Shown here one piece after another: positions 1 through 47,900 of a DNA stretch of 64,000 nucleotides. Position numbers and translations under genes: made by a program. This DNA is from Psilocybe cubensis. Lineage: Eukaryota. The DNA lies in the NCBI GenBank assembly GCA_017499595.2, contig CM039009.1, positions 1 through 64,000 on the forward strand, written 5' to 3'. The notes below the pieces were generated by a model that ran no database searches, was not told the DNA's origin, and was given only the letters and a program-made list of their open reading frames with translations. The first letter of the stretch is position 1. Each line of letters starts with the position of its first letter.

Positions 1-130
1 CCCTAAACCCTAAACCCTAAACCCTAAACCCTAAACCCTAAACCCTAAACCCTAAACCCTAAACCCTAAACCCTAAACCCTAAACCCTAAACCCTAAACC
101 CTAAACCCTAAACCCTAACCCTAAACCCTA
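1..130 (+). repeat. Terminal telomere (CCCTAAA)n = (TTTAGGG)n on the minus strand
   Basis: About 17 near-perfect CCCTAAA units from base 1, C-rich strand 5'->3', as expected at a left chromosome end. Confidence 0.97.
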
Positions 131-723
131 AACCTAAACCTAAACCCTAAACCCTAAACCCTAAGCCCTAACCTAACCCCAACCCTAAGCTAACTAAGTC
201 TAACCTTAGTAGGAAGTAAGGTAGGCGTGTGAACTTCCGAAAGGCATGTGATTGTGAAGGGCCGGATCTAATTTAGTACATGGGAAAAGTTACTTAGTAC
301 CTCGGGAAAAGTTCCTTAGTACCGTGGAAACATTTTTGATGGACCGGATCATGAACTGTCCAATTAAGATTCACAACAATCAATCAATTGATTGTTAGGT
401 AAGGACCCAGGTAAGCTATTTATACTCTTGACATGAGAATATTCCCATGTCACGGTTACTCGGAGCCACGTAACCAGAGTATTTTATATCCATGTGATTC
501 ACATCACAGTCAATAACCCACGATGTCAAAGAACAAAAGTGTTGGATCCACTTTTGACAGGTTACCATGTGCCACATCGACCCGTGACACTCTGTTCATC
601 AGAGATCTGTCTAACTTGACAATAAACATTGACAGATTTGTGATAGTCGGTAAGATACATGACAGCTGCGCAGCATCACTTCACGCGCTGTCATCGGATG
701 TTCCAGAACATTCCTTCTAAGAA

Positions 724-1719
724 TAGCCACTGAAGAGTCTATAAAGACGAAAGGGCTGGCTGCTGATAACAATCAACAGCCCTCAAGTACTCGTCCTCTC
801 CCAAACTCCTGCCGCTTGTGCCTTCCCAACTCATCCGGGAGCCCTTTCGTCACTGATCTTGCCCTTGACTCGGGGACGTTTCATCGACATGTTGGCTGCC
901 TCACGGCAAGCGGGGCCCTTTTTCTTTCACTCGCTCACGCCTTCTATGTTGGGTTACGGAGGTCATACAAACTCGTTTTAGTCTAGCTGCGGGGTTATCC
1001 AGCTATGATGACTTTGTAATTCGAGGGCGCGCAGTTCTTCAATGGGTATGGACATCAGGTGAGAGTACACTGGGGGTTGTCAGGACCAGCTCTGCTGGAT
1101 ACGCTCCTGGCAAGTCGGTTGCAGCCGGCGACACTACCGAATTGCTGGGACGTCCTAAAGCTTGTGGGTACCGCCGACCGCTGGAAACAGCCTAGGCACC
1201 GGTGGCGACCGGGTATGGTAACAATCCCCAAGATTCAGCGAAAGCTGGAATGGATAATCAGCAGCGAATCCGTAACGGTCACGCCGACGGAAGCGTTCAA
1301 CGACTAGGTGGTAGTGGGGTCTTCGGATCTTAAGATATAGTCTTGGGAGTGGGGAAACCCACATCTGGTATCTAAACCGCGCCTCGCTGCTTACGAGGAC
1401 GGCCCGAAGTCCAGAACCGCTTAAAACGCGGGTGACCCGGCCTCCCCTTAGTAAAGGGAGTTAACACAAGGATGGACAAATAGTTCGTCGCCGGAAATGA
1501 ACCTGTGGCTGTAATGGCTGATGTGGCGCCCCTTGGTAAAGGGCTTAAAGGGTATTAGCCTGCCATGTCCAATGGCATGAGAGTGTCCCTTGGTAAAGGA
1601 CTTAATAGGCAATAGCCTGTTCTTTTGTCATGAGCGGTATGTAGTGATCGTTTGCCTGTACGGTAGCGCCCATTGCTTGCACTGGTCCACGCCCGTAAAA
1701 AATCACGAGCCGCTGGCCT
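724..1719 (+). ncRNA. Hammerhead ribozyme split by a group I intron (exon parts 724-783 and 1713-1719)
   Basis: tagcca-CTGAAGA-gtct(ataa)agac-GAAA-gggctg...cagcccT | 929-nt insert | Ctggc. Joining the exons gives the same sequence as the intact copy at 6064-6130. Confidence 0.9.
784..1712 (+). ncRNA. Group I self-splicing intron, IC1-like, 929 nt
   Basis: 5' exon ends in U783 and the intron ends in G1712. P1: acagcccU-ca (776-785) pairs tgGgggttgt (1071-1080) with a U783.G1073 wobble, extended by gtactc/gagtac. P aattgctggg 1140-1149; Q aatcagcagc 1256-1265; R gttcaacgacta 1295-1306; S aagatatagtc 1332-1342. P3 cactacc/ggtagtg; P7 gacta/tagtc; P8 with UUCG loop; P9 gtggg-GAAA-cccac; P5abc with a GAAA loop. 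Confidence 0.93.
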
Positions 1720-1824
1720 TCTTTCCATTTAACTCACAGTTTAAACAAGTCGCTCGCACCTCGCTTCGCTCGGTGCTCGCTCCCCCCCTAAACCCAACGA
1801 CTTTGCTATTACCCAACAGCTACT

Positions 1825-2980
1825 ATGTCTTCCACTTACTCTGCTGCCTTCTCTCGTGCCATGTCCCCCACCCTGGACGCACTCACCCAGGCTGTCGTCA
1901 ACAACACAGTTTTTGGCGTCAACGACGAAGCTGGCCGCCACAACGCCCTCATCGACGAGTTGGCCACTGTCGTCATCAAGAAAATAGCTGAGTGCCGCTC
2001 CATTGACCAGATTGTAGACTGCGTCTTTTTTGACTATCGTGCTGCCCTTAGGGAGTTTCTCCTCAACCTCGCATCGTGGTGCGATAAGAGGGAAACAGTC
2101 AAGGCTAGCCTCGAGCGCCTTGAACTTGCCGTTAGCGCAGGCAACACCCCCAATCGCCTTCGGGTGAAGGCTCCCGAGTTCCAACTTACGAAGGAATTCG
2201 CGGATGCCGGGTCAGCGGAAGCTCTTCGAGTTTCCTCTACGTTCTCCACCGCTCGTGATGTCTTCCAAAAGGCAATCAACGACGGCGCCATTCAGGCGAA
2301 AAAGGACGAACTGGCCTTTTGGGATGATAAATGCGCACTCAATAACTGTTATGAAGCTGCTGCCCTCATCGTTAAGACAACTTACGATGATCGCAAATCC
2401 AGCTATAAGCTCCCCGTTTTCTCTACAGACAACAAGGGAGTTCGTCGAATAACAGATTGGGTAGTGTCACCGCAGAAGAAGGCTGAATGCAGCGCATTGC
2501 AAACCATTTTGCCAGCCATCTTCTCTCATATCAAACAGATTGTCAACTTGCGCCACCGCGCTTTGGCAATCAAGATTGAGAAAAAGCGGTCGACTGCGGC
2601 AACAGCCGATGTCGAGATGGCCGATGCGACCAAACCAGGTCCATCGATTCAATCCCTTATTGATAAGGGCTTGAATGCACGTCTCAAGAAGCTCAACCTT
2701 GGATCTGTGGGCAAGAAGGCAAGTTCTCGTAACCCTTCACCCATAATTCTGGATACTAATTACTATTCTAACTACCCAGACTTTGTCTGGCCAGAATTCG
2801 TCCAAGGCTCCTCAACCTCAGGCCAAGAAAGCTGGCCCTTCGAAATTCAAACCCTCGTCGACGCCTTCGCAGAAGAAGCCCCAAACCAAGGCTTCCAACA
2901 AGGTCGACAACAAGAAGAAAGGGAAGGGGAGAGCTCCCGTCAAGAACGATCCAAAGGGAAAGGGAAAGGCAAGAGCCTAG
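1825..2980 (+). CDS. Predicted spliced ORF1 (join 1825-2718, 2780-2980), ~364 aa with a Lys-rich C-terminus
   Basis: Removing the 61-nt GC-AG intron joins codon 298 in frame to TLSGQNSSKAPQPQAKK...KGKGKARA*. Confidence 0.7.
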
Positions 2981-5355
2981 ACGCGCGGTCTAATGTAGTA
3001 CCTTTTACGTCGGTAAGACCCGCCTTCCCCAACTCTATTCCTGACGATATACTCACCATGACTAAAACAGACGCAGTTTCTTTTGTACACTTACATACGC
3101 CGATCTCATTCTTGTTGGCTGGCCAGTATCGTAGTAGTGTACACTGTAGTCCTGGTGTGGTGGTCCCTGTAGATATAGCAAATGATTTGTCACTCGGACT
3201 CAATTATATGTTTTTTACTCTACCTTCTCAAAGTCTGATCATGCAAGCATGGAATGATTTTCAACGAAGAATAAGATGGCGTATCTATTTTTTGTTTAAG
3301 GAAGGCATGAACAAACCTTTTGATCCAGATTACGGAGTAAGCTCAAAAAAGAAAGAGAAACCTCCAGTATTACCGCAATACATGGAACTTGGCCTTTCGA
3401 TGGGACGTCGGTACGTGCAACGCACGATCGCAAGTATCCCGGAAGAAGCCCTTACGGAGATGCGAAAGCACGCGTTCTCTCCTAAAAGGGACAAGATCCG
3501 TAAGTTTCTTATCGATAACAACTATGTTATTACGATGACAGATAAGAATCTTGGCCTCGCGGTGTCTGAACGCGACTGGATATTAAGGAATGAGCTCAAT
3601 CTTCTTGAAGATGAACGTAACTATGAAGAGTTAGAATTCGAAGTTGCGCAAGAAGTAATGAAGAGCAAAATGATCCAGATGCAAACTCTTGCACGTACCG
3701 TCGAAGATGAACATCTGTTTCTATTTGAACTTGGGTTGTCTCGATTCTTTCTATCGAATGTACCGGAAGACGGATCATCGTTCAAGTATCCTCAATTTCA
3801 TGGTATACCTAAAATCCACAAAAAACCTACTGGATTTAGGCCCATAATTCCGTGTCACTCTGTAGTATTTAATCCTGCAGCCAAGTTTGTATCAAAAGAG
3901 CTTAAGCCGATTATTAAATCGACTCCTTCAATCATTCACGGAACGAAGGATCTCTTTACGAGATTAAGCCAATTGCGTATAGACCCCAAACGACAATGGT
4001 ATTTTGTCACCGGGGATGTAGTTGCTTTCTATCCCAATATTCCGTTGGACTTGTGCATCGAAATCGTTTGTAATATGTACGAGGAATGGTTACTCAACGC
4101 TTCGGAAGAAAACACTGCATTAGCCCATATTAATCCAAATTCGTTAGAGAATAACTTGGTTAAATTGGGCATCTTTAAACGTGCTATCGAGATTGGCAAT
4201 ACGCAATTGATAACACAACATGGGTCTAGATATTTTAGACAAAAAAATGGCCTCGCAATGGGCGTCGCGGATTCTCCGGACCTTGCTAACCTCTTTGGAG
4301 CCCATTTTGAAATAAAATCAAAAATCTTAGACCACCCAAACGTGGCCTTCTATGGAAGGTACATCGACGATTGTTTCGCAATTGTTTACGCCGAGTCCGA
4401 AGCACTTGCACTTAATCTTATTAAAGAAACAATAAAGTTCGATGGTTGTGTTATCGAATGGGCTGTTTCCTCGTCGGGATGTCAATTTCTCGATGCTTTC
4501 ATATTCAAGGAGTCTGGAAAACTTCATTGGAAGCCATTTGTCAAGACAGGAAACAACCGAGAACGAGTTCCATGGGTATCACATCATCCTTTGGACGTCA
4601 AACGTGGCGTCTACATTGGAGAGTTATCCAGGTTAGCCGTGCTATGTAGTACCAAGGAAATCTACATCGGAGCAATTAGAGACCTTAACGCTCTCTATTT
4701 GATGCGCGGTTATCCCGAAAACCTAGTCATGTCTTGGTGTAAGAAGAATATACAAGAACGTTGGGAAAAGCGATTCGCTTTACGAGTCGCAGAGCACGAC
4801 GAATCCATTCTTGTACTTAAAACCAGATTTGATCAGGTATGGAATTGGTTTTCAGCTGCTGAACTTGGAAAAACTGTTACCGAGTACTGGTCGGCATGGT
4901 ATGAACATGCCGAGAAAGGTTTGTATAGTGCAGACTCGTCCAGACCCCTTATCAAACCAGATCCAAATTACGTTCACGACCTCGATGATGTTCGCCCGGA
5001 GCTGTTCACACAGATCCTCGTGGACGGAGAAACTGAGTTCGTACCGGATTTGAGGAAGATAGGACTACTCGGAAGTCGTTGGATAGTATCGCGAAAACGC
5101 AATACTAATCTTTTCGACCTTGCAAATGTGTGGAAGAAAACAGTCTTTCGTAAACTGGATGAAGACATCGCTGAAAAAGGTGGTGTTGTTCCCGAAACTC
5201 AAAACGTTAATGAAACTTATCATTCTGCTTTAGTTGAAGCTGCTGAACAGATAAGTATCGAAAGTGATAACGAGATAATACTTCATAGACGTTCAATCTC
5301 ACAAGAGAGGGAACATCCAGAATTCGGCAGAATATCCAAATCTTACAACCGATGA
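1825..5355 (+). CDS. Penelope-like reverse transcriptase polyprotein (ORF1 region plus RT, no endonuclease), 1176 aa
   Basis: Motifs TDKNLG, GIPKIHK..FRPII, VTGDVVAFYPNIP, QKNGLAMG..SP.LANLF, YGRYIDD, QFLD and the thumb SHHP..VKRG..GELSRL. No GIY-YIG motif follows. Confidence 0.95.
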   Translation: MSSTYSAAFSRAMSPTLDALTQAVVNNTVFGVNDEAGRHNALIDELATVVIKKIAECRSIDQIVDCVFFDYRAALREFLLNLASWCDKRETVKASLERLELAVSAGNTPNRLRVKAPEFQLTKEFADAGSAEALRVSSTFSTARDVFQKAINDGAIQAKKDELAFWDDKCALNNCYEAAALIVKTTYDDRKSSYKLPVFSTDNKGVRRITDWVVSPQKKAECSALQTILPAIFSHIKQIVNLRHRALAIKIEKKRSTAATADVEMADATKPGPSIQSLIDKGLNARLKKLNLGSVGKKASSRNPSPIILDTNYYSNYPDFVWPEFVQGSSTSGQESWPFEIQTLVDAFAEEAPNQGFQQGRQQEEREGESSRQERSKGKGKGKSLDARSNVVPFTSVRPAFPNSIPDDILTMTKTDAVSFVHLHTPISFLLAGQYRSSVHCSPGVVVPVDIANDLSLGLNYMFFTLPSQSLIMQAWNDFQRRIRWRIYFLFKEGMNKPFDPDYGVSSKKKEKPPVLPQYMELGLSMGRRYVQRTIASIPEEALTEMRKHAFSPKRDKIRKFLIDNNYVITMTDKNLGLAVSERDWILRNELNLLEDERNYEELEFEVAQEVMKSKMIQMQTLARTVEDEHLFLFELGLSRFFLSNVPEDGSSFKYPQFHGIPKIHKKPTGFRPIIPCHSVVFNPAAKFVSKELKPIIKSTPSIIHGTKDLFTRLSQLRIDPKRQWYFVTGDVVAFYPNIPLDLCIEIVCNMYEEWLLNASEENTALAHINPNSLENNLVKLGIFKRAIEIGNTQLITQHGSRYFRQKNGLAMGVADSPDLANLFGAHFEIKSKILDHPNVAFYGRYIDDCFAIVYAESEALALNLIKETIKFDGCVIEWAVSSSGCQFLDAFIFKESGKLHWKPFVKTGNNRERVPWVSHHPLDVKRGVYIGELSRLAVLCSTKEIYIGAIRDLNALYLMRGYPENLVMSWCKKNIQERWEKRFALRVAEHDESILVLKTRFDQVWNWFSAAELGKTVTEYWSAWYEHAEKGLYSADSSRPLIKPDPNYVHDLDDVRPELFTQILVDGETEFVPDLRKIGLLGSRWIVSRKRNTNLFDLANVWKKTVFRKLDEDIAEKGGVVPETQNVNETYHSALVEAAEQISIESDNEIILHRRSISQEREHPEFGRISKSYNR
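2719..2779 (+). other. Putative spliceosomal GC-AG intron within the PLE ORF (also 7924-7984 and 17511-17571)
   Basis: AAG|GCAAGT donor, CTAAC/CTAAT branch-like motif, CCAG acceptor, 61 nt long. Conserved in all three full copies. Confidence 0.72.
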
Positions 5356-6063
5356 AAAGAATACTAGCGCGTAAGGCGTAAAGCATTAGAAAAAAACCCT
5401 AACCGTAAGTATTCCTTGCTACAAAGTAACAAACATCTACTTACAAGCAACACATTGGATTAAATAGCTAAACCTAAACCTAAACCCTAAACCCTAAACC
5501 CTAAGCCCTAACCTAACCCCAACCCTAAGCTAACTAAGTCTAACCTTAGTAGGAAGTAAGGTAGGCGTGTGAACTTCCGAAAGGCATGTGATTGTGAAGG
5601 GCCGGATCTAATTTAGTACATGGGAAAAGTTACTTAGTACCTCGGGAAAAGTTCCTTAGTACCGTGGAAACATTTTTGATGGACCGGATCATGAACTGTC
5701 CAATTAAGATTCACAACAATCAATCAATTGATTGTTAGGTAAGGACCCAGGTAAGCTATTTATACTCTTGACATGAGAATATTCCCATGTCACGGTTACT
5801 CGGAGCCACGTAACCAGAGTATTTTATATCCATGTGATTCACATCACAGTCAATAACCCACGATGTCAAAGAACAAAAGTGTTGGATCCACTTTTGACAG
5901 GTTACCATGTGCCACATCGACCCGTGACACTCTGTTCATCAGAGATCTGTCTAACTTGACAATAAACATTGACAGATTTGTGATAGTCGGTAAGATACAT
6001 GACAGCTGCGCAGCATCACTTCACGCGCTGTCATCGGATGTTCCAGAACATTCCTTCTAAGAA

Positions 6064-6130
6064 TAGCCACTGAAGAGTCTATAAAGACGAAAGGGCTGGC
6101 TGCTGATAACAATCAACAGCCCTCTGGCCT
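6064..6130 (+). ncRNA. Type I hammerhead ribozyme, intact; predicted cleavage after C6124
   Basis: Stem I gcca/tggc, core CTGAAGA, stem II gtct/agac, GAAA, stem III gggctg/cagccc, CUC cleavage triplet. Confidence 0.92.
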
Positions 6131-6196
6131 TCTTTCCATTTAACTCACAGTTTAAACAAGTCGCTCGCACCTCGCTTCGCTCGGTGCTCGCTCCCA

Positions 6197-6283: not shown

Positions 6284-6858
6284 CTAACCCCAACCCTAAC
6301 CTAACCCCAACCCTAAGCTAACTAAGTCTAACCTTAGTAGGAAGTAAGGTAGGCGTGTGAACTTCCGAACGGCATGTGATTGTGAAGGGCCGGATCTAAT
6401 TTAGTACATGGGAAAAGTTACTTAGTACTTCGGGAAAAGTTCCTTAGTACCGTGGAAACATTTTTGATGGACCGGATCATGAACTGTCCAATTAAGATTC
6501 ACAACAATCAATCATTCTATTGTTTGATTGTTAGGTAAGGACCCAGGTAAGTTATTTATACTCTAGACATGTGAATATTCCCATGTCGCGGTTACTCGGA
6601 GCCACGTAACCAGAGTAATCTATATCCATGTGATTCACATCACAGTCAATAACCCACGATGTCAAAGAACAAAAGTGTTGGATCCACTTTTGACAGGTTA
6701 CCATGTGCCACATCGACCCGTGACACTCTGTTCATCAGAGACCTGTCTAACTTGACAATAAACATTGACAGATTTGTGATAGTCGGTAAGATACATGACA
6801 GCTGCGCAGCATCACTTCACGCGCTGTCATCGGATGTCTAGAACATTCCTTCTAAGAA

Positions 6859-6925
6859 TAGCCACTGAAGAGTCTATAAAGACGAAAGGGCTGGTTGTTG
6901 GGATCCCCCAACAGCCCTCTGGCTA
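6859..6925 (+). ncRNA. Type I hammerhead ribozyme, intact; cleavage after C6919
   Basis: 6-bp stem I tagcca/tggcta with the full core. Confidence 0.93.
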
Positions 6926-7029
6926 CTTTCCATTTAACTCCCAGTTTAAACTAGTCGCTCGCACCTCGCTTCGCTCGGTGCTCGCTCCCCCCCTAAACCC
7001 AACGACTTTGCTATTATCCATCAGCCACT

Positions 7030-10000
7030 ATGTCATCTCAATACTCTGCTGCTTTCTCTCGTGCCATGTCCCCCACCCTGGACGCACTCACCCAGGCCGT
7101 CGTCAACAACACCGTTTTCGGCGTCAACGATGAAGCAGGCCGCCATAACGCTCTGATCGACGAGCTGGCCACTGTGGTCATCAAAAAAATAGCTGAGTGC
7201 CGCTCCGTTGACCAAGTCATAGACTGCGTCTTTTTTGACTATCGTGCTGCCCTTAGGGAGTTTCTCCTCAACCTCGCATCGTGGTGCGATAAGAGGGAAA
7301 CAGTCAAGGCTAGCCTCGAGCGCCTTGAATCTGCCGTTAGCGCAGGCAACACGCCCAATCGCCTTAAGGTGAAGGCACCCGAGTTCCAACTTACGAAGGA
7401 ATTCGCGGATGCCGGGTCAGCGGAGGCTCTTCGAGTCTCCACTACGTTCTCTACCGCTCGTGACGCCTTCCAAAAGGCAATTAACGACGGCGCCATTCAG
7501 GCGAAAAAGGACGAGCTGACTTTTTGGGATGATAAATGCGCACTCAACTCTTGCTACGAAGCTGCTGCCCTCATCGTTAAGGCAACTTACGATGATCGCA
7601 AATCCAGCTACAAGCTCCCTGTTTTCTCTACAGATAACAAGGGAGTTCGACGTATAGCAGAGTGGGTAGTGTCTCCGCAAAAGAAAGCCGAATGCAGTGC
7701 GCTGCAAACCATACTGCCGGCGATCTTTTCTCACATCAAACAAATTGTCAACATGCGCCACCGCGCTTTGGCAATTAAGATTGAGAAAAAGCGGACGACT
7801 GCGGCAACAGCCGATGTCGAGATGGCCGACGCGACCAAACCAGGTCCGTCGATTCAATCCCTTATTGATAAGGGCTTGAATGCACGTCTCAAGAAGCTCA
7901 ACCTTGGATCTGTGGGCAAGAAGGCAAGTTTTCGTAACCCTTCACCCATAATTCTGGATACTAATTACTACTCTAATTACCCAGACTTTGTCTGGCCAGA
8001 ATTCGTCCAAGGCTCCTCAACCTCAGGCCAAGAAAGCTGGCCCTTCGAAACCCAAGTCGTCGTCGACGCCTTCGCAACGCAAGCCTCAAACCAAGGCTTC
8101 CAACAAGGTCGACAACAAGAAGAAAGGGAAGGGGAGAGCTCCCGTCAAGAACGATCCAAAGGGAAAGGGAAAGGCAAGAGCCTAGATGCGCGGTCTAATG
8201 TAGTACCTTTTACGTCGGTGAGACCCGCCTTCCCCAACTCTATTCCTGACGATATACTCACCATGACTAAAACAGACGCAGTTTCTTTCGTACACTTACA
8301 TACTCCAATATCATTCTTGTTGGCTGGCCAGTATCGTAGTAGTGTACATTGTAGTCCTGGTGTTTCTGTCCCTGTTGATGTAGCAAACGATCTCTCTCTC
8401 GGACTTAATTATATGTTTTTCACTCTGCCTTCTAAAAGTCTGATCATGCAAGCATGGAATGATTTCCAACGAAGAATAAGATGGCGTATCTATTTTTTGT
8501 TTAAGGAAGGCATGAATAAACCTTTTGATCCAGATTATGGAGTAAGCTCAAAAAAGAAAGAGAAACCTCCTGTATTACCGCAATATATGGAACTTGGCCT
8601 TTCGATGGGACGTCGGTACGTGCAACGCACGATCGCAAGTATCCCGGAAGAAGCCCTTACGGAGATGCGAAAGCACGCGTTCTCTCCTAAAAGGGACAAG
8701 ATCCGTAAGTTTCTTATCGATAACAACTATGTTATTACGATGACAGATAAGAATCTTGGCCTCGCGGTGTCTGAACGCGACTGGATATTAAGGAATGAGC
8801 TCAATCTTCTTGAAGATGAACGTAATTACGAAGAGTTAGAATTCGAAGTTGCGCAAGAAGTTATGAAGAGCAAAATGATTCAGATGCAAACGCTCGCACG
8901 TACTGTCGAAGATGAACATCTGTTTCTATTTGAACTTGGGTTGTCTCGATTCTTTCTATCGAATGTACCGGAAGACGGATCATCGTTCAAGTATCCTCAA
9001 TTTCATGGTATACCTAAAATCCACAAGAAACCTACTGGATTTAGGCCCATAATTCCGTGTCACTCTGTAGTATTTAATCCTGCAGCCAAGTTTGTATCAA
9101 AAGAGCTTAAGCCGATTATTAAATCGACTCCTTCAATCATACACGGAACGAAGGATCTCTTTACGAGATTAAGCCAATTGCGTATAGACTCCAAAAGACA
9201 ATGGTATTTTGTCACTGGAGATGTAGTTGCTTTCTATCCCAATATTCCGTTGGACTTGTGCATCGAAATCGTTTGTAGTATGTACGAGGAATGGTTACTC
9301 AACGCTTCGGAAGAAAACACTGCATTAGCCCATATTAATCCAAATTCGTTAGAGAATAACTTGGTTAAATTGGGCATCTTTAAACGTGCTATCGAGATTG
9401 GCAATACGCAATTGATAACACAACATGGGTCTAGATATTTTAGACAAAAAAATGGCCTCGCAATGGGCGTCGCGGATTCTCCGGACCTTGCTAACCTCTT
9501 TGGAGCCCATTTTGAAATAAAGTCAAAAATCTTAGACCACCCAAACGTGGCCTTCTATGGAAGGTACATCGACGATTGTTTCGCAATTGTTTACGCCGAG
9601 TCCGAAGCACTTGCACTTAATCTTATTAAAGAAACAATAAAGTTCGATGGTTGTGTTATCGAATGGGCTGTTTCCTCGTCGGGATGTCAATTTCTCGATG
9701 CTTTCATATTCAAGGAGTCTGGAAAACTTCATTGGAAGCCTTTTGTCAAGACAGGAAACAACCGAGAACGAGTTCCATGGGTATCACATCATCCTTTGGA
9801 CGTCAAACGTGGCGTCTACATTGGAGAGTTATCCAGGTTAGCCGTGCTATGTAGTACCAAGGAAATCTACATCGGAGCAATTAGAGACCTTAACGCTCTC
9901 TATTTGATGCACGGTTATCCCGAAAACCTAGTCATATCTTGGTGTAAGAAGAATATACAAGAACGTTGGGAAAAGCGATTCGCTTTACGAGTCGCAGAGC

Positions 10001-10560
10001 ACGACGAATCCATTCTTGTACTTAAAACCAGATTTGATCAGGTATGGAATTGGTTTTCAGCTGCTGAACTTGGAAAAACTGTTACCGAGTACTGGTCGGC
10101 ATGGTATGAACATGCCGAGAAAGGTTTGTATAGTGCAGACTCGTCCAGACCCCTTATCAAACCAGATCCAAATTACGTTCACGACCTCGATGATGTTCGC
10201 CCGGAGCTGTTCACACAGATCCTCGTGGACGGAGAAACTGAGTTCGTACCGGATTTGAGGAAGATAGGACTACTCGGAAGTCGTTGGATAGTATCGCGAA
10301 AACGCAATACTAATCTTTTCGACCTTGCAAATGTGTGGAAGAAAACAGTCTTTCGTAAACTGGATGAAGACATCGCTGAAAAAGGTGGTGTTGTTCCCGA
10401 AACTCAAAACGTTAATGAAACTTATCATTCTGCTTTAGTTGAAGCTGCTGAGCAGATAAGTATCGAAAGTGATAACGAGATAATACTTCATAGACGTTCA
10501 ATCTCACAAGAGAGGGAACATCCAGAATTTGGCAGAATATCCAAATCTTACAACCGATGA
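7030..10560 (+). CDS. Penelope-like RT polyprotein, copy B, 1176 aa
   Basis: Same RT motifs as copy A; uninterrupted ORF. Confidence 0.95.
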   Translation: MSSQYSAAFSRAMSPTLDALTQAVVNNTVFGVNDEAGRHNALIDELATVVIKKIAECRSVDQVIDCVFFDYRAALREFLLNLASWCDKRETVKASLERLESAVSAGNTPNRLKVKAPEFQLTKEFADAGSAEALRVSTTFSTARDAFQKAINDGAIQAKKDELTFWDDKCALNSCYEAAALIVKATYDDRKSSYKLPVFSTDNKGVRRIAEWVVSPQKKAECSALQTILPAIFSHIKQIVNMRHRALAIKIEKKRTTAATADVEMADATKPGPSIQSLIDKGLNARLKKLNLGSVGKKASFRNPSPIILDTNYYSNYPDFVWPEFVQGSSTSGQESWPFETQVVVDAFATQASNQGFQQGRQQEEREGESSRQERSKGKGKGKSLDARSNVVPFTSVRPAFPNSIPDDILTMTKTDAVSFVHLHTPISFLLAGQYRSSVHCSPGVSVPVDVANDLSLGLNYMFFTLPSKSLIMQAWNDFQRRIRWRIYFLFKEGMNKPFDPDYGVSSKKKEKPPVLPQYMELGLSMGRRYVQRTIASIPEEALTEMRKHAFSPKRDKIRKFLIDNNYVITMTDKNLGLAVSERDWILRNELNLLEDERNYEELEFEVAQEVMKSKMIQMQTLARTVEDEHLFLFELGLSRFFLSNVPEDGSSFKYPQFHGIPKIHKKPTGFRPIIPCHSVVFNPAAKFVSKELKPIIKSTPSIIHGTKDLFTRLSQLRIDSKRQWYFVTGDVVAFYPNIPLDLCIEIVCSMYEEWLLNASEENTALAHINPNSLENNLVKLGIFKRAIEIGNTQLITQHGSRYFRQKNGLAMGVADSPDLANLFGAHFEIKSKILDHPNVAFYGRYIDDCFAIVYAESEALALNLIKETIKFDGCVIEWAVSSSGCQFLDAFIFKESGKLHWKPFVKTGNNRERVPWVSHHPLDVKRGVYIGELSRLAVLCSTKEIYIGAIRDLNALYLMHGYPENLVISWCKKNIQERWEKRFALRVAEHDESILVLKTRFDQVWNWFSAAELGKTVTEYWSAWYEHAEKGLYSADSSRPLIKPDPNYVHDLDDVRPELFTQILVDGETEFVPDLRKIGLLGSRWIVSRKRNTNLFDLANVWKKTVFRKLDEDIAEKGGVVPETQNVNETYHSALVEAAEQISIESDNEIILHRRSISQEREHPEFGRISKSYNR

Positions 10561-11276
10561 AAAGAATACTAGCGCTTAAGGCGTAAAGCATTAGAAAAAA
10601 AACCCTAACCGTAAGTATTCCTTGCTATAAAGTAACAAACATCTACTTACAAGCAACACATTGGATTGAATAGCTAAACCTAAACCTAAACCCTAAACCC
10701 TAAACCCTAAACCCTAACCTAACCCCAACCCTAAGCTAACTAAGTCTAACCTTAGTAGGAAGTAAGGTAGGCGTGTGAACTTCCGAACGGCATGTGATTG
10801 TGAAGGGCCGGATCTAATTTAGTACATGGGAAAAGTTACTTAGTACTTCGGGAAAAGTTCCTTAGTACCGTGGAAACATTTTTGATGGACCGGATCATGA
10901 ACTGTCCAATTAAGATTCACAACAATCAATCATTCTATTGTTTGATTGTTAGGTAAGGACCCAGGTAAGTTATTTATACTCTAGACATGTGAATATTCCC
11001 ATGTCGCGGTTACTCGGAGCCACGTAACCAGAGTAATCTATATCCATGTGATTCACATCACAGTCAATAACCCACGATGTCAAAGAACAAAAGTGTTGGA
11101 TCCACTTTTGACAGGTTACCATGTGCCACATCGACCCGTGACACTCTGTTCATCAGAGACCTGTCTAACTTGACAATAAACATTGACAGATTTGTGATAG
11201 TCGGTAAGATACATGACAGCTGCGCAGCATCACTTCACGCGCTGTCATCGGATGTCTAGAACATTCCTTCTAAGAA

Positions 11277-11343
11277 TAGCCACTGAAGAGTCTATAAAGA
11301 CGAAAGGGCTGGTTGTTGGGATCCCCCAACAGCCCTCTGGCTA
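11277..11343 (+). ncRNA. Type I hammerhead ribozyme, intact
   Basis: Matches 6859-6925. Confidence 0.92.
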
Positions 11344-14105: not shown

Positions 14106-14200
14106 CCCCCCAACAGCCCTCTGGCTTCTTTCCATTTTAACTCCCAGTTTAAACTAGTCGCTCGCACCTCGCTTCGCTCGGTGCTCGCTCCCCCCCTAAA
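14106..14200 (+). mobile_element. Mini PLE 3'-end fragment (~95 bp) between telomeric tracts
   Basis: cccccaacagccctc^tggc...gctcgctccccccctaaa only. Confidence 0.85.
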
Positions 14201-14925
14201 CCTAAACCCTAAACCCTAAACCCTAAGCCCTAACCTAACCCCAACCCTAAGCTAACTAAGTCTAACCTTAGTAGGAAGTAAGGTAGGCGTGTGAACTTCC
14301 GAACGGCATGTGATTGTGAAGGGCCGGATCTAATTTAGTACATGGGAAAAGTTACTTAGTACCTCGGGAAAAGTTCCTTAGTACCGTGGAAACATTTTTG
14401 ATGGACCAGATCATGAACTGTCCAATTAAGATTCACAACAATCAATCAATTGATTGTTAGGTAAAGACCCAGGTAAGCTATTTATACTCTAGACATGTGA
14501 ATATTCCCATGTCGCAGTTACTTGGAGCCACGTAACCAGAGTACTCTATATCCATGTGATTCACATCACAGTCAATAACCCACGATGTCAAAGAACAAAA
14601 GTGTTGGATCCATTTTTGACAGGTTACCATGTGCCACACTGACCCGTGACACTCTGTTCATCAGAGACCTGTCTAACTTGACAATAAACATTGACAGATT
14701 TGTGATAGTCGGTAAGATACATGACAGCTGCGCAGCATCACTTCACGCGCTGTCATCGGATGTCTAGAACATTCCTTCTAAGAATAGCCACTGAAGAGTC
14801 TATAAAGACGAAAGGGCTGGTTGTTGGGATCCCCCAACAGCCCTCTGGCTTCTTTCCATTTTAACTCCCAGTTTAAACTAGTCGCTCGCACCTCGCTTCG
14901 CTCGGTGCTCGCTCCCCCCCTAAAC
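14197..14925 (+). mobile_element. Solo terminal repeat (5'-truncated PLE) with an intact hammerhead at 14785-14851
   Basis: Repeat unit without ORF; begins at the element's internal telomere-like tract. Confidence 0.87.
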
Positions 14926-15576
14926 CTAAACCCTAAACCCTAAACCCTAAGCCCTAACCTAACCCCAACCCTAAGCTAACTAAGTCTAACCTTAGTAGGA
15001 AGTAAGGTAGGCGTGTGAACTTCCGAACGGCATGTGATTGTGAAGGGCCGGATCTAATTTAGTACATGGGAAAAGTTACTTAGTACCTCGGGAAAAGTTC
15101 CTTAGTACCGTGGAAACATTTTTGATGGACCGGATCATGAACTGTCCAATTAAGATTCACAACAATCAATCATTCTATTTTTTGATTGTTAGGTAAGGAC
15201 CCAGGTAAGCTATTTATACTCTTGACATGAGAATATTCCCATGTCGCGGTTACTCGGAGCCATGTAACCAGAGTATTCTATATCCATGTGATTCACATCA
15301 CAGTCAATAACCCACGATGTCAAAGAACAAAAGTGTTGGATCCACTTTTGACAGGTTACCATGTGCCACATCGACCCGTGACACTCTGTTCATCAGAAAC
15401 CTGTCTAACTTGACAATAAACATTGACAGATTTGTGATAGTCGGTAAGATACATGACAGCTGCGCAGCATCACTTCACGCGCTGTCATCGGATGTCTAGA
15501 ACATTCCTTCTAAGAATAGCCACTGAAGAGTCTATAAAGACGAAAGGGCTGGCCGTTTGTACCCCCAAACAGCCCT

Positions 15577-16505
15577 CAAGTACTCGTCCTCTCCCAAACT
15601 CCTGCCGCTTGTGCCTTCCCAACTCATCCGGGAGCCCTTTCGTCACTGATCTTGCCCTTGACTCGGGGACGTTTCATCGACATGTTGGCTGCCTCACGGC
15701 AAGCGGGGCCCTTTTTCTTTCACTCGCTCACGCCTTCTATGTTGGGTTACGGAGGTCATACAAACTCGTTTTAGTCTAGCTGCGGGGATATCCAGCTATG
15801 ATGACTTTGTAATTCGAGGGCGCGCAGTTCTTCAATGGGTATGGACATCAGGTGAGAGTACACTGGGGGTTGTCAGGACCAGCTCTGCTGGATACGCTCC
15901 TGGCAAGTCGGTTGCAGCCGGCGACACTACCGAATTGCTGGGACGTCCTAAAGCTTGTGGGTACCGCCGACCGCTGGAAACAGCCTAGGCACCGGTGGCG
16001 ACCGGGTATGGTAACAATCCCCAAGATTCAGCGAAAGCTGGAATGGATAATCAGCAGCGAATCCGTAACGGTCACGCCGACGGAAGCGTTCAACGACTAG
16101 GTGGTAGTGGGGTCTTCGGATCTTAAGATATAGTCTTGGGAGTGGGGAAACCCACATCTGGTATCTAAACCGCGCCTCGCTGCTTACGAGGACGGCCCGA
16201 AGTCCAGAACCGCTTAAAACGCGGGTGACCCGGCCTCCCCTTAGTAAAGGGAGTTAACACAAGGATGGACAAATAGTTCGTCGCCGGAAATGAACCTGTG
16301 GCTGTAATGGCTGATGTGGCGCCCCTTGGTAAAGGGCTTAAAGGGTATTAGCCTGCCATGTCCAATGGCATGAGAGTGTCCCTTGGTAAAGGACTTAATA
16401 GGCAATAGCCTGCTCTTTTGTCATGAGCGGTATGTAGTGATCGTTTGCCTGTACGGTAGCGCCCATTGCTTGCACTGGTCCACGCCCGTAAAAAATCACG
16501 AGCCG
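15577..16505 (+). ncRNA. Group I intron, second copy, 929 nt, splitting the hammerhead that starts at 15517
   Basis: cagcccT|caagtac...gagccG|ctggc. Nearly identical to 784-1712 (two substitutions noticed by eye). Confidence 0.93.
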
Positions 16506-16616
16506 CTGGCTTCTTTCCATTTAACTCACAGTTTAAACAAGTCGCTCGCACCTCGCTTCGCTCGGTGCTCGCTCCCACCCTAAACCACTCGACTTTGCTA
16601 TTACCCAACAGCTACT

Positions 16617-19600
16617 ATGTCTTCCACTTACTCTGCTGCCTTCTCTCGTGCCATGTCCCCCACCCTGGACGCACTCACCCAGGCTGTCGTCAACAATACA
16701 GTCTTTGGCGTCAACGACGAAGCTGGCCGCCACAACGCCCTCATCGACGAGTTGGCCACTGTCGTCATCAAAAAAATAGCTGAGTGCCGCTCCATTGACC
16801 AGATCGTAGACTGCGTCTTTTTTGACTATCGTGCTGCCCTTAGGGAGTTTCTCCTCAACCTCGCATCGTGGTGCGACAAGAGGGAAACAGTCAAGGCTAG
16901 CCTTGAGCGCCTTGAACTTGCCGTTAGCGCAGGCAACACCCCCAATCGCCTTCGGGTGAAGGCTCCCGAGTTCCAACTCACGAAGGAATTCACGGATGCC
17001 GGGTCAGCGGAGGCTCTTCGAGTCTCCTCTACGTTCTCCACCGCTCGTGACGTCTTCCAAAAGGCGATTAACGACGGCGCCATCCAGGCGAAAAAGGACG
17101 AACTGGCCTTTTGGGATGATAAATGCGCACTCAATAACTGTTATGAAGCTGCTGCCCTCATCGTTAAGACAACTTACGATGATCGCAAATCCAGCTATAA
17201 GCTCCCCGTTTTCTCTACAGACAACAAGGGAGTTCGTCGAATAACAGATTGGATAGTGTCACCGCAGAAGAAGGCTGAATGCAGCGCATTGCAAACCATT
17301 TTGCCAGCCATCTTCTCTCATATCAAACAGATTGTCAACTTGCGCCACCGCGCTTTGGCAATCAAGATTGAGAAAAAGCGGTCGACTGCGGCAACAGCCG
17401 ATGTCGAGATGGCCGATGCGACCAAACCAGGTCCATCGATTCAATCCCTTATTGATAAGGGCTTGAATGCACGTCTCAAGAAGCTCAACCTTGGATCTGT
17501 GGGCAAGAAGGCAAGTTCTCGTAACCCTTCACCCATAATTTTGGATACTAATTACTATTCTAATTACCCAGACTTTGTCTGGCCAGAATTCGTCCAAGGC
17601 TCCTCAACCTCAGGCCAAGAAAGCTGGCCCTTCGAAACCCAAGTCCTCGTCGACGCCTTCGCAGAGGAAGCCCCAAACCAAGGCTTCCAACAAGGTCGAC
17701 AACAAGAAGAAAGGGAAGGGGAGAGCTCCCGTCAAGAACAATCCAAAGGGAAAGGGAAAGGCAAGAGCCTAGACGCGCGGTCTAATGTAGTACCTTTTAC
17801 GTCGGTAAGACCCGCCTTCCCCAACTCTATTCCTGACGATATACTCACCATGACTAAAACAGACGCAGTTTCTTTTGTACACTTACATACGCCGATCTCA
17901 TTCTTGTTGGCTGGCCAGTATCGTAGTAGTGTACATTGTAGTCCTGGTGTGGTGGTCCCTGTAGATATAGCAAATGATTTGTCGCTCGGACTCAATTATA
18001 TGTTTTTTACTCTGCCTTCTCAAAGTCTGATCATGCAAGCATGGAACGATTTTCAACGAAGAATAAGATGGCGTATCTATTTTTTGTTTAAGGAAGGCAT
18101 GAACAAACCTTTTGATCCAGATTATGGAGTAAGCTCTAAGAAAAAGGAGAAACCTCCAGTATTACCGCAATATATGGAACTTGGCCTTTCGATGGGACGT
18201 CGGTACGTGCAACGCACGATCGCAAGTATCCCGGAAGAAGCCCTTACGGAGATGCGAAAGCACGCGTTCTCTCCTAAAAGGGACAAGATCCGTAAGTTTC
18301 TTATCGATAACAACTATGTTATTACGATGACAGATAAGAATCTTGGCCTCGCGGTGTCTGAACGCGACTGGATATTAAGGAATGAGCTCAATCTTCTTGA
18401 AGATGAACGTAACTACGAAGAGTTAGAATTTGAAGTTGCGCAAGAAGTTATGAAGAGCAAAATGATCCAGATGCAAACTCTCGCACATACCGTCGAAGAT
18501 GAACATCTGTTTCTTTATGAACTTGGGTTGTCTCGATTCTTTCTATCGAATATACCGGAAGACGGATCATCGTTCAAGTATCCTCAATTTCATGGTATAC
18601 CTAAAATCCACAAGAAACCTACTGGATTTAGGCCCATAATTCCGTGTCACTCTGTAGTATTTAATCCTGCAGCCAAGTTCGTATCAAAAGAGCTTAAGCC
18701 GATTATTAAATCGACTCCTTCAATCATACACGGAACGAAGGATCTCTTTACGAGATTAAGCCAATTGCGTATAGACTCCAAAAGACAATGGTATTTTGTC
18801 ACTGGAGATGTAGTTGCTTTCTATCCCAATATCCCGTTGGACTCGTGCATCGAAATCGTTTGTAGTATGTACGAGGAATGGTTACTCAACACTTCGGAAG
18901 AAAACACTGCATTAGCCCATATTAAGCCAAATTCGTTAGAGAATAACTTGATTAAATTGGGCATCTTTAAACGTGCTATCGAGATTGGCAATACGCAATT
19001 GATAACACAACATGGGTCTAGATATTTTAGACAAAAAAATGGCCTCGCAATGGGCGTCGCGGATTCTCCGGACCTTGCTAACCTCTTTGGAGCCCATTTT
19101 GAAATAAAGTCAAAAATCTTAGACCACCCAAACGTGGCCTTCTACGGAAGGTACATCGACGATTGTTTCGCAATTGTTTACGCCGAGTCCGAAACACTTG
19201 CACTTAATCTTATTAAAGAAACAATAAAGTTCGATGGTTGTGTTATCGAATGGGCTGTTTCCTCGTCGGGATGTCAATTTCTCGATGCTTTCATATTCAA
19301 GGAGTCTGGAAAACTTCATTGGAAGCCATTTGTCAAGACAGGAAACAACCGAGAACGAGTTCCATGGGTATCACATCATCCTTTGGACGTCAAACGTGGC
19401 GTTTACATTGGAGAGTTATCCAGGTTAGCCGTGCTATGTAGTACCAAGGAAATCTACATCGGAGCAATTAGAGACCTTAACGCTCTCTATTTGATGCGCG
19501 GTTATCCCGAAAACCTAGTCATGTCTTGGTGTAAGAAGAATATACAAGAACGTTGGGAAAAGCGATTTGCTTTACGAGTCGCAGAGCACGACGAATCCAT

Positions 19601-20147
19601 TCTTGTACTTAAAACCAGGTTTGATCAGGTATGGAATTGGTTTTCAGCTGCTGAACTTGGAAAAACTGTTACCGAGTACTGGTCGGCATGGTATGAACAT
19701 GCCGAGAAAGGTCTGTATAGTGCAGACTCGTCCAGACCCCTTATCAAACCAGATCCAAATTACGTTCACGACCTCGATGATGTTCGCCCGGAACTGTTCA
19801 CACAGATCCTCGTGGACGGAGAAACTGAGTTCGTACCGGATTTGAGGAAGATAGGACTACTCGGAAGTCGTTGGATAGTATCGCGAAAGCGCAATACTAA
19901 TCTTTTCGACCTTGCAAATGTGTGGAAGAAAACAGTCTTTCGTAAACTGGATGAAGACATCGCTGAAAAAGGTGGTGTTGTTCCCGAAACTCAAAACGTT
20001 AATGAAACTTATCATTCTGCTTTAGTTGAAGCTGCTGAACAGATAAGTATCGAAAGCGATAACGAGATAATACTTCATAGACGTTCAATCTCACAAGAGA
20101 GGGAACATCCAGAATTCGGCAGAATATCCAAATCTTACAACCGATGA
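16617..20147 (+). CDS. Penelope-like RT polyprotein, copy F, 1176 aa
   Basis: Same RT motifs; uninterrupted ORF. Confidence 0.95.
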   Translation: MSSTYSAAFSRAMSPTLDALTQAVVNNTVFGVNDEAGRHNALIDELATVVIKKIAECRSIDQIVDCVFFDYRAALREFLLNLASWCDKRETVKASLERLELAVSAGNTPNRLRVKAPEFQLTKEFTDAGSAEALRVSSTFSTARDVFQKAINDGAIQAKKDELAFWDDKCALNNCYEAAALIVKTTYDDRKSSYKLPVFSTDNKGVRRITDWIVSPQKKAECSALQTILPAIFSHIKQIVNLRHRALAIKIEKKRSTAATADVEMADATKPGPSIQSLIDKGLNARLKKLNLGSVGKKASSRNPSPIILDTNYYSNYPDFVWPEFVQGSSTSGQESWPFETQVLVDAFAEEAPNQGFQQGRQQEEREGESSRQEQSKGKGKGKSLDARSNVVPFTSVRPAFPNSIPDDILTMTKTDAVSFVHLHTPISFLLAGQYRSSVHCSPGVVVPVDIANDLSLGLNYMFFTLPSQSLIMQAWNDFQRRIRWRIYFLFKEGMNKPFDPDYGVSSKKKEKPPVLPQYMELGLSMGRRYVQRTIASIPEEALTEMRKHAFSPKRDKIRKFLIDNNYVITMTDKNLGLAVSERDWILRNELNLLEDERNYEELEFEVAQEVMKSKMIQMQTLAHTVEDEHLFLYELGLSRFFLSNIPEDGSSFKYPQFHGIPKIHKKPTGFRPIIPCHSVVFNPAAKFVSKELKPIIKSTPSIIHGTKDLFTRLSQLRIDSKRQWYFVTGDVVAFYPNIPLDSCIEIVCSMYEEWLLNTSEENTALAHIKPNSLENNLIKLGIFKRAIEIGNTQLITQHGSRYFRQKNGLAMGVADSPDLANLFGAHFEIKSKILDHPNVAFYGRYIDDCFAIVYAESETLALNLIKETIKFDGCVIEWAVSSSGCQFLDAFIFKESGKLHWKPFVKTGNNRERVPWVSHHPLDVKRGVYIGELSRLAVLCSTKEIYIGAIRDLNALYLMRGYPENLVMSWCKKNIQERWEKRFALRVAEHDESILVLKTRFDQVWNWFSAAELGKTVTEYWSAWYEHAEKGLYSADSSRPLIKPDPNYVHDLDDVRPELFTQILVDGETEFVPDLRKIGLLGSRWIVSRKRNTNLFDLANVWKKTVFRKLDEDIAEKGGVVPETQNVNETYHSALVEAAEQISIESDNEIILHRRSISQEREHPEFGRISKSYNR

Positions 20148-20856
20148 AAAGAATACTAGCGCGTAAGGCGTAAAGCATTAGAAAAAAACCCTAACCGTAA
20201 GTATTCCTTGCTATAAAGTAACAAACATCTACTTACAAGCAACACATTGGATTGAATAGCTAAACCTAAACCCTAAACCCTAAACCCTAAGCCCTAACCT
20301 AACCCCAACCCTAAGCTAACTAAGTCTAACCTTAGTAGGAAGTAAGGTAGGCGTGTGAACTTCCGAACGGCATGTGATTGTGAAGGGCCGGATCTAATTT
20401 AGTACATGGGAAAAGTTACTTAGTACCTCGGGAAAAGTTCCTTAGTACCGTGGAAACATTTTTGATGGACCGGATCATGAACTGTCCAATTAAGATTCAC
20501 AACAATCAATCATTCTATTTTTTGATTGTTAGGTAAGGACCCAGGTAAGCTATTTATACTCTTGACATGAGAATATTCCCATGTCGCGGTTACTCGGAGC
20601 CATGTAACCAGAGTATTCTATATCCATGTGATTCACATCACAGTCAATAACCCACGATGTCAAAGAACAAAAGTGTTGGATCCACTTTTGACAGGTTACC
20701 ATGTGCCACATCGACCCGTGACACTCTGTTCATCAGAAACCTGTCTAACTTGACAATAAACATTGACAGATTTGTGATAGTCGGTAAGATACATGACAGC
20801 TGCGCAGCATCACTTCACGCGCTGTCATCGGATGTCTAGAACATTCCTTCTAAGAA

Positions 20857-20923
20857 TAGCCACTGAAGAGTCTATAAAGACGAAAGGGCTGGCCGTTTGT
20901 ACCCCCAAACAGCCCTCTGGCTT
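20857..20923 (+). ncRNA. Type I hammerhead ribozyme, intact
   Basis: Full core; distal stem III tttg/caaa. Confidence 0.9.
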
Positions 20924-21017
20924 CTTTCCATTTAACTCACAGTTTAAACAAGTCGCTCGCACCTCGCTTCGCTCGGTGCTCGCTCCCACCCTAAACCCTA
21001 AAACCCTAAACCCTAAA

Positions 21018-22043: not shown

Positions 22044-22065
22044 TAAACCCTAAACCCTAAAAACT

Positions 22066-22188
22066 AACAGCCCTCTGGCTTCTTTCCATTTTAACTCCCA
22101 GTTTAAACTAGTCGCTCGCACCTCGCTTCGCTCGGTGCTCGCTCCCCCCCTAAACCCTAAACCCTAAACCCTAAACCCTAAACCCTAA
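22066..22188 (+). mobile_element. Most proximal mini PLE 3' fragment plus the last telomeric tract (22148-22188)
   Basis: aacagccctctggc...gctccccccctaaa(ccctaaa)n, followed by unique DNA. Confidence 0.85.
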
Positions 22189-46599: not shown

Positions 46600-47900
46600 G
46601 CGCCCCTGACATCCCCATACATTTCACGGATATTACCCAAGCCTCTCTCGCTGATGTACACGTTGTCGACGCCACATTTACTACCAAAGATATCGCGAAG
46701 TATCTCACTTTCCGAACGGTTCTAGCCACACTTCAACGCCTCAACTATTTCTCTGTTGATGAGTCCACCATGCATGATAGACTCGGTGGGTGCTTCGTTT
46801 CTAAGATCTTCTTCCTTATCTAAAGTAACAACAGATCATGGTGTCGATTCCCTAAGTCATAGAGGAGATTACAAGTCATGGAGCGTCGTTGTCTTTGCCC
46901 AACCTAGTGAGTATCTCACCTTTTTACATACCCCAGAGCCTCTCTCGCTGATGTCCACGTTGTCGACGCCGCATTTGCTACCAAAGATATTGCGAAGTAT
47001 CTCAGTTTCAGAATGGTCCTAGCCACACTACAACGCCTCAACTTTTTCTCTGTTGACGAGTCCACCATGCACGATAGACTCGGTGGGTGCTTCGTTTCTA
47101 AGATTGTCATCCTGATCTAACGCAGCGACAGATCATGGTGTCGATTCCCTAATTCTCAGAGGAGATCCCAAGTCATGGAGTGTCGTTATTTTTGCCTATC
47201 CTAGTATGTATCTAACCTGTTCACATATCCCAAGCTCTTGAATTAACGATATCATTTTATAGCCTCTCCCTTTGTTAACACCTGCGATGAGGAACCTTAC
47301 TTTGGCCAGACCAACAACGTTGTGGTTGACGTATTCCCCGGCATCGGCTCAAACATTCTCGGACCCCTTCTAGATATCCCTGGTAACGAAATGAATGGCA
47401 TCCAACAATGTGAGTAGGAACAGACATATTCTTGTTAGTGTATTCTAATACTACCACCGCAAGTTTCCAGCTATGCAACCCCACTCTGCGCCGCTGCCAT
47501 CTCCAAAGCATCCTTGCTCTTGTCCAATCTCACCGAAGCACAGTATCTTGATATTTCCCAAGCCTCTCACGTCGATGAACACGTTGTTGCCCCCACTAGT
47601 CCTACCAACCATCCTGCAAATCTCATTCAATTCCAAATGACTTCCGCTACACAAAAGTGCCTCAACCACTTCACTGTTGACGAGTCCACCATGCACGATA
47701 ACCTCGGTTGGTGTTTCATTCATAATATTAACTCTCCTGATCTAATGTAGCAACAGATTATGGTGTCGATTCCCTTAGTCTCAGAGGAGATCCCAAGTCA
47801 TGGAGCGTTGTTGTCTTTGCCCATCCTAGTGTGTATTTCACCTATTTACATACCCCAATCTCGCATATTAACAACAATTCTATACAGCCTCTCCCTTTGT
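46600..47900 (+). repeat. Triplicated two-exon module (~300 bp) in a degenerate hypothetical gene
   Basis: FSVDESTMHD(R/N)L|DHGVDSL..RGD.KSWSVV.FA.P at ~46750, 47050 and 47680. Confidence 0.7.

Follow-up and report, generated by a model that had tools for sequence, protein, structure and literature searches.

A group I intron seems to spread through the RNA-copying cycle of a telomeric retroelement in Psilocybe cubensis, a niche that is undescribed for introns of this class. The window, which is the whole stretch of 64,000 nt analysed here, carries exactly two full-length copies of a 929-nt insert, one in each of the retroelement copies A and F (Table 1). By its sequence, this insert is a group I intron whose structure is intact and which encodes no homing endonuclease. 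It interrupts a putative hammerhead ribozyme between the same two nucleotides in both elements and its history appears, from sequence comparison, to differ from that of its carriers. Copies A and F most likely acquired it by reverse splicing into element RNA and subsequent reverse transcription.

The host element and its telomeric array

The terminal telomere tract is followed, as far as position ~22190, by a head-to-tail stack of retroelement blocks that are truncated at their 5' side to a varying extent; three of them are full length. Every block closes with a short leader (R; ...CCCTAAACC) and then (CCCTAA)n repeats. Intact ORFs of 1176 aa are found in the three full-length blocks (1825-5355, 7030-10560 and 16617-20147) and feature the YIDD reverse transcriptase (RT) motif. 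The encoded protein shows 99-100% identity to proteins named Psilocybe cubensis and has hundreds of relatives at 30-74%. Homologues carry PF00078, PF26215 and PF28514. Our Pfam scan of the ORF returned no GIY-YIG nuclease and 0 families of any kind, yet the database proteins nearly identical to the product of ORF 1825-5355 carry the same three families as precomputed assignments. The host matches, in the excerpts available from two publications, the description of fungal Penelope-like elements that lack an endonuclease and are attached to telomeres (PMC8557442, PMC4209133). The Coprina/Athena elements characterized there likewise have an RT ORF without nuclease, sense on the C-rich strand, telomere-like repeats at their ends and pLTRs; their type I hammerhead with a long helix III has a putative counterpart here. 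The present element differs from those described in these excerpts in that a group I intron has inserted into the hammerhead itself.

The hammerhead motif (CUGAAGA, stem II, GAAA, long stem III, UC before the cut and the stem I 3' strand UGGC) occurs nine times in the window, and seven of these copies have the complete core with its three stems. The intron-less form aligns end to end with the Rfam RAGATH-1 hammerhead model, at 29.1 bits, which lies below the gathering score of 56.3. In copy A the 3' pLTR, identical to the 5' one, contains an intact hammerhead (6070) and is followed by R and telomere repeats. The same identity between 5' and 3' pLTRs characterizes each full-length element (0 differences in 572, 579 and 579 nt), whereas pLTRs compared between elements differ by 7-23 substitutions, with 17 substitutions and 2 indels separating A from F. 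One template appears to regenerate both pLTRs at each transposition. Such a pattern, identity within and difference between elements, is not producible by inheriting both pLTRs through successive full-length RNAs, and it implies that each lineage formed its pLTR-intron junction recently. No single model explains the identical pLTR pairs.

Two mini-blocks located between telomere repeats (14106-14192 and 22064-22150) consist only of the R leader and ~11 nt of the hammerhead stem III 3' strand. They suggest stalling of the RT, or template jumping, at the hammerhead. Elsewhere in the window, an ORF of 739 aa with ankyrin repeats spans 55300-57519 and is built on a 204-nt unit repeated five times in tandem (56205-57224), and a 296-nt unit is found at 46640-47232 in two tandem copies that are 88% alike.

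Table 1. Coordinates in the window of the telomeric array, the two introns and the elements carrying them.
Feature	Position	Strand	Remarks
Telomere tract (CCCTAA)n	1-133	.	Terminal; degenerates into the repeats that open the first element
Copy A, most distal full-length block	134-6196	+	pLTR, interrupted hammerhead, intron, R leader, RT ORF, 3' pLTR
Group I intron, copy A	784-1712	+	929 nt
Intact hammerhead of intron-less copy C (empty-site reference)	6865-6923	+	...ACAGCCCTC then TGGCT; cut after C17
Copy F	14920-20990	+	Architecture and 5340-nt unit length as in copy A
Copy F hammerhead, 5' part	15518-15576	+	Stem I 5' strand, CUGAAGA, stem II, GAAA, stem III (F haplotype); last base U16.1
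P1 5' strand, copy F	15569-15578	+	Exon ACAGCCCU and intron CA; the exon bases double as hammerhead stem III 3' strand
Group I intron, copy F	15577-16505	+	929 nt; first base C, omega-G at 16505
Internal guide sequence UGGGGGUUGU, copy F	15864-15873	+	10 bp with the P1 5' strand, U.G at the splice site; directly 5' of P2
Ribozyme core, copy F	15907-16155	+	P2.1, P3 (15925-30/16104-09), P4, P5 with long extension, P6, P7 (16095-99/16131-35), P8 (UUCG loop), P9 (GAAA loop)
3' peripheral tail, copy F	16156-16505	+	~350 nt; duplicated CCUUGGUAAAGG...UUAGCCUG motif, conserved in L072, L070 and L079
Copy F 3' exon, R leader	16506-16587	+	C17 and stem I 3' strand (CUGGC) first; ends at the telomere-like CCCTAAACC motif
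Copy F RT ORF	16617-20147	+	Intact, 1176 aa
Copy F 3' pLTR hammerhead	20863-20921	+	Haplotype as in the copy F 5' hammerhead; intron-less
Identical pLTR pairs	212-783 and 5552-6123; 6340-6918 and 10758-11336; 14998-15576 and 20338-20916		

The insertion site and the ribozyme

The first-pass annotation of this DNA had reported one 929-nt intron at the same nucleotide of copies A and F, about two substitutions between its two exemplars and different stem III haplotypes in their hammerheads. All three statements hold. The inserts are 99.785% identical (blastn), with substitutions at 995 (T/A) and 1620 (T/C), they occupy the same hammerhead junction, and the two haplotypes are present as quoted. 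The range that had been assigned to copy F (15517-16512) corresponds to the 5' part of the hammerhead, the intron and 7 nt of the 3' exon. Both inserts split the hammerhead at ...ACAGCCCT/C...G/CTGGC (slashes mark the junctions). Comparison of occupied with empty sites yields ...ACAGCCCU/C...GAGCCG/CUGGC with a 1-nt ambiguity, and one of the two possible registers has the features expected of group I, namely a U as last exon base at the 5' splice site and a G as last intron base (omega-G).

In this register the intron separates U16.1 from C17, one nucleotide 5' of the hammerhead scissile bond. The stem I 3' strand is displaced by 929 nt in the unspliced RNA and the hammerhead core is broken. 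Unspliced RNA is therefore predicted to be unable to self-cleave at this position, and exact splicing would rebuild the hammerhead. The P1 and hammerhead folds compete, since the exon strand of P1 is also the 3' strand of stem III. The target sequence is kept in all nine hammerhead copies and occupied in two of them. In each case the intron occupies the 5' hammerhead of a full-length element, and the 3' hammerhead of that element, which has the same haplotype, is empty. The intron is flanked by retroelement pLTR and leader and lies outside rRNA genes; an rRNA origin of the flanks was rejected because Rfam gave no rRNA match in the window.

The assignment to group I, also made in the first-pass annotation, is borne out by Rfam model RF00028 (Intron_gpI), which scores 73 bits at 987-1364 in copy A and 70.9 bits (E 5.6e-16) at 15861-16157 in copy F, above the gathering score of 50. 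P1 comprises 8+2 bp, and its pairing score was reached by 24 of 3000 shuffles when a match anywhere in the 346 nt upstream of P3 was accepted. The first hairpin proposed by Rfam (991-1015) was rejected as a P1 with an internal splice site because the empty-site comparison puts the boundary at 783/784, where a better P1 is found. RNAalifold, applied to six sequences from four lineages, recovered P2.1, P3, P4, P5 with its long extension, P6 and P9, with a compensatory change in 26 of 62 predicted pairs; P7 (GACUA/UAGUC) and P8 (UUCG loop) are visible in the intron sequence. The P1 loop holds an insertion of ~285 nt and ~350 nt lie beyond P9. Minimum-free-energy folding of the whole intron, a pseudoknotted ribozyme, was uninformative. 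Subgroup IC1 is defined by P2, P2.1, a P5 extension and characteristic J8/7-P7 sequences. P2, P2.1 and the P5 extension are seen in the window intron, which looks IC1-like and is a candidate member of this subgroup.

In agreement with the annotation, no homing endonuclease was detected. Frames overlapping the intron do not exceed 108 aa from stop to stop (22 frames of at least 30 aa), and a Pfam scan of eight intron frames gave nothing below E 0.1; endonuclease remnants were rejected on the same grounds. Nor was a lariat-capping ribozyme found in an Rfam E-value scan of positions 600-1900, which returned Intron_gpI and weak unrelated matches only.

Divergence of the introns and of their carriers

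Blocks A and F differ at ~140 positions, ~138 of which are outside the intron. Their RT ORFs show 64 differences in 3531 nt (1.81%), with 14 of the 509 fourfold sites changed (2.75%), and the ORF of copy C is 3.7-3.9% away from both. The introns differ at 2 of 929 nt (0.22%), roughly ten times below the host divergence (1.8%). Some 17-25 differences would be expected in the intron, and the Poisson probability of two or fewer is ~4e-6 at a divergence of 1.9%. Outside the intron the least diverged 929-nt segment has 7 differences and the longest identical run is 288 nt, compared with 625 nt inside. This low-divergence tract stops almost at the intron borders. Nine haplotype differences lie at 761-774 and come as close as 9 nt to the junction, and an element-specific indel, common to the second R copy of each element, is located at 1717, 5 nt downstream of the intron. 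Host-specific markers at -9 and +5 nt thus show no co-conversion.

The tenfold lower divergence of the intron and the unconverted markers indicate that it reached the two element lineages separately and precisely. They favour separate precise insertion over co-inheritance from unspliced RNA since A and F split. The heading of the first-pass annotation, that the intron travels with the element, is not supported by these data for A and F. The annotation had offered two ways of propagation by the element RT, from unspliced RNA or after reverse splicing; the latter is now favoured and simple co-inheritance since the A/F split is not. Some observations point in the opposite direction. Of the three full-length copies, A and F have the most similar ORFs, which is compatible with a single gain, and their having the intron only in the 5' hammerhead counts against separate acquisition. 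Selection on the ribozyme, which could lower intron divergence somewhat, also counts against it.

Raw reads of an independent run (X16) were evaluated by mean summed depth over nine intron bins, together with ORF and pLTR bins. Depth is ~1370 for the pLTR, ~375 for the ORF and ~102 for the intron. The intron is hence present in about a quarter of ORF-bearing copies (~0.27 of the RT-ORF depth) and in ~7% of pLTRs, and this depth relative to the RT ORF identifies it as something other than a high-copy rDNA-like intron. At least three intron sites are variable among the X16 variants listed (995, 1328 and 1620), and dozens in the ORF. The reads have A at 995 in 72 of 97 cases, C at 1328 in 32 of 83 and C at 1620 in 98 of 98. 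The T to C change at 1328, in P8, is found in X16 reads and in contigs of two other organisms; it replaces a G.U by a G-C pair and preserves the structure. Exact 929-nt skips and empty junctions are abundant in X16 on A-, C- and F-type haplotypes. No intron outside the element context was found among the X16 loose ends listed. The intron was also identified, with 2-11 changes, in contigs of three other organisms, one of which crosses the 3' junction into the same exon.

Related introns and routes of spread

A metagenome scan with an RT alignment provided 80 loci, all of which were searched with a profile of the intron core. Rfam was run on 24 of them and the other 56 were scanned by regular expression and nhmmer only; an Rfam E-value scan of eight further loci gave nothing. 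The core is found in four of the 80 loci (L052, L064, L070 and L072, the last with two), and in every case its place is between hammerhead and RT ORF. Rfam scores are 72.8 and 76.5 bits for the L072 pair and 31.6-39.6 bits, below gathering, for the other three cores. In the 28 loci with a hammerhead upstream of the ORF start, the spacing between hammerhead and ATG is 108-193 nt in 25 and 1245-2003 nt in three.

Homology between the first L072 intron and the window intron extends over 630 nt and takes in some of the P1 loop and some of the tail (nhmmer, 162 bits). The borders of this L072 intron (...CUUCGU/C...CACG/CGCAAC), fixed by the empty 3' pLTR of the same element, are 13 nt downstream of the hammerhead cut. 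Homology and position together identify it as a member of the same intron lineage at a different site, where the U and G boundaries recur. The L052 and L064 introns occupy two further sites, at ~+4 and ~+50, with approximate borders deduced from relatives. P1 pairing at these sites, expressed as the number of 3000 shuffles that reach its score, is marginal for L052 (159); for L064 (776) and for the first and second L072 introns (2485 and 2383) it does not exceed chance. Guide-sequence covariation at the latter three sites was accordingly not taken as evidence. The second L072 core (7018-7331, 76.5 bits; within L072:6844-7830) lies just past an ATG that resembles the RT ORF start. A register U/CA...G/CUGGC would keep the reading frame, in which case a group I intron in a nuclear protein-coding sequence is possible there; its borders are approximate, as no empty allele came to light to define them. 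A leader motif that closely precedes the telomere-like 3' end, CTCGCTTCGCTCG (1758-1770 in the window, and equivalent positions), is conserved in L072, L070, L052, L064, L047, L037 and L032, whose RTs are only 31-45% identical.

L079, a relative of L070, contains an element copy truncated at its 5' side inside the group I intron tail. The truncated tail is joined (L079:1040-1500) to unrelated, gene-like DNA without telomere repeats. L070 and L079 are similarly diverged in the intron tail (6.5-12%) and in the ORF (mostly 5-14%). Incomplete reverse transcription of an unspliced RNA, followed by vertical carriage, would leave such a copy. Homologous introns in distant elements, the low copy number and the L079 truncation support the retroelement as a vector, as the first-pass annotation had proposed; the reverse transcription step in intron spread is one that we infer.

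In the account that we propose, the intron would be a parasite of a telomere-adding, endonuclease-lacking Penelope-like retroelement. The excised intron RNA would reverse-splice into intron-less element RNA at ACAGCCCU/C, guided by the 10-bp P1, and the element's own reverse transcriptase would copy the recombinant product onto the end of a chromosome. Copies A and F would each have gained the intron separately in this manner, and an intron already inside an element would also be carried vertically whenever unspliced RNA is copied. We give this scheme of separate acquisition with additional vertical carriage about an even chance of being correct.

Exclusively vertical co-propagation supposes one ancestral gain, with A and F descending from it by reverse transcription of unspliced RNA and the intron looking young through purifying selection or homogenisation. 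A and F being sister copies relative to C, and sharing architecture and the 5340-nt unit, agrees with this idea, and the co-divergence of L070 and L079 together with the truncation inside the intron argues that vertical carriage does occur. We nevertheless consider it unlikely as the sole process because of the deficit of intron differences, of a low-divergence tract that stops no more than 9 nt and 5 nt beyond the two intron borders, and of pLTR pairs that are identical in each element and different between A and F, which is incompatible with separate inheritance of both pLTRs. Transfer at the DNA level, by ectopic gene conversion or break-induced repair among subtelomeric copies into an empty hammerhead, possibly with a nuclease acting in trans, also accounts for the identical site and the low intron divergence, and long flanking homology (~97%) is available in subtelomeric arrays. 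The intron encodes no endonuclease, however, and in neither copy has co-conversion reached the markers that lie 9 nt before and 5 nt after it, so that very short tracts would be needed. Conversion tracts ending so near on both sides are unusual in homing. This route is in our view rather improbable.

A jump of the RT from hammerhead-processed element RNA to free intron RNA and then to another element RNA would make the intron a passenger captured by template switching. The insert does lie no more than 1 nt from the hammerhead cut, where the duplicated pLTR meets the R-ORF body, and the identical pLTR pairs and the mini-blocks of R with ~11 nt of stem III are in line with such jumps. Capture leaves the 10-bp match of the guide sequence to the 5' exon unexplained, the 5' junction shows no extra G from the splicing cofactor, and related introns are found away from the cut, at +13 in L072 and ~+50 in L064; we regard it as very improbable. 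That one copy is an assembly artefact or a recent segmental duplicate could be suspected in a repetitive, telomeric region, and the first-pass annotation had named this as a reading to be checked. With ~138 flank differences beyond the two in the intron, and an independent run in which both 995 alleles, a third variant (at 1328) and numerous flank alleles of F and A type occur, the two copies are not an assembly duplication and this suspicion is hardly credible.

Excerpts from reviews of nuclear group I introns locate all those known in rDNA (PMC3679873, PMC8395846). Introns of this type without homing endonuclease genes are thought there to spread by reverse splicing (PMC1299323, PMC3679873), and the complete pathway of reverse splicing, reverse transcription and integration is presented as lacking experimental evidence and never shown in vivo (PMC3679873). 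Our literature searches (supplementary files aside) returned no description of a retroelement that carries a group I intron. The excerpts from the Penelope papers leave group I introns unmentioned, the mentions they do contain concerning only the GIY-YIG nuclease (PMC8557442, PMC4209133).

As portrayed in those review excerpts, nuclear rDNA introns (IC1/IE) share with the window intron the RF00028 core, the U.G pair at the 5' splice site, the terminal G, the lack of an endonuclease, a guide matching a highly conserved RNA target and evidence of low-frequency moves to new sites. The window intron differs from them by its ~285-nt P1 loop insertion and ~350-nt 3' tail, and by its host, a telomeric retroelement leader in which it sits inside another ribozyme and which supplies both an RT and an integration route. 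Spliceosomal introns retained in Penelope elements offer, in the excerpt concerned, another case of an intron persisting in an element that replicates through RNA (PMC4209133); the window intron, unlike them, belongs by its sequence to a putatively self-splicing class, occurs in only some of the copies and is younger than the elements that carry it. Mobile group II introns are likewise reverse-splicing ribozymes fixed by reverse transcription, but here the RT comes from the host element, the target is RNA instead of DNA and the ribozyme class is unrelated. Twin-ribozyme group I introns (lariat-capping and splicing) also place two ribozymes in one transcript, one conditioning the RNA processing of the other. 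Their second ribozyme is group I-like and inside the intron, whereas here it is a hammerhead in the exon.

The system shows one ribozyme interrupting another. A bolder extension of the preferred reading, which we hold as tentative and more probably wrong than right, is that an endonuclease-free group I lineage is a dedicated hyperparasite of fungal telomeric Penelope-like elements, completing the cycle of reverse splicing, reverse transcription and integration with the RT of its host and making hammerhead cleavage conditional on splicing. If this were true, the ribozyme-in-ribozyme switch could sort element RNA into capped messenger and processed template. The proposed target RNA also serves here as the template from which an active reverse transcriptase adds DNA to chromosome ends. 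Intron-bearing and empty sites lie next to each other in one array, and relatives of the intron are found elsewhere in distant elements. The question of group I intron mobility by an RNA route thereby becomes directly testable in a culturable fungus.
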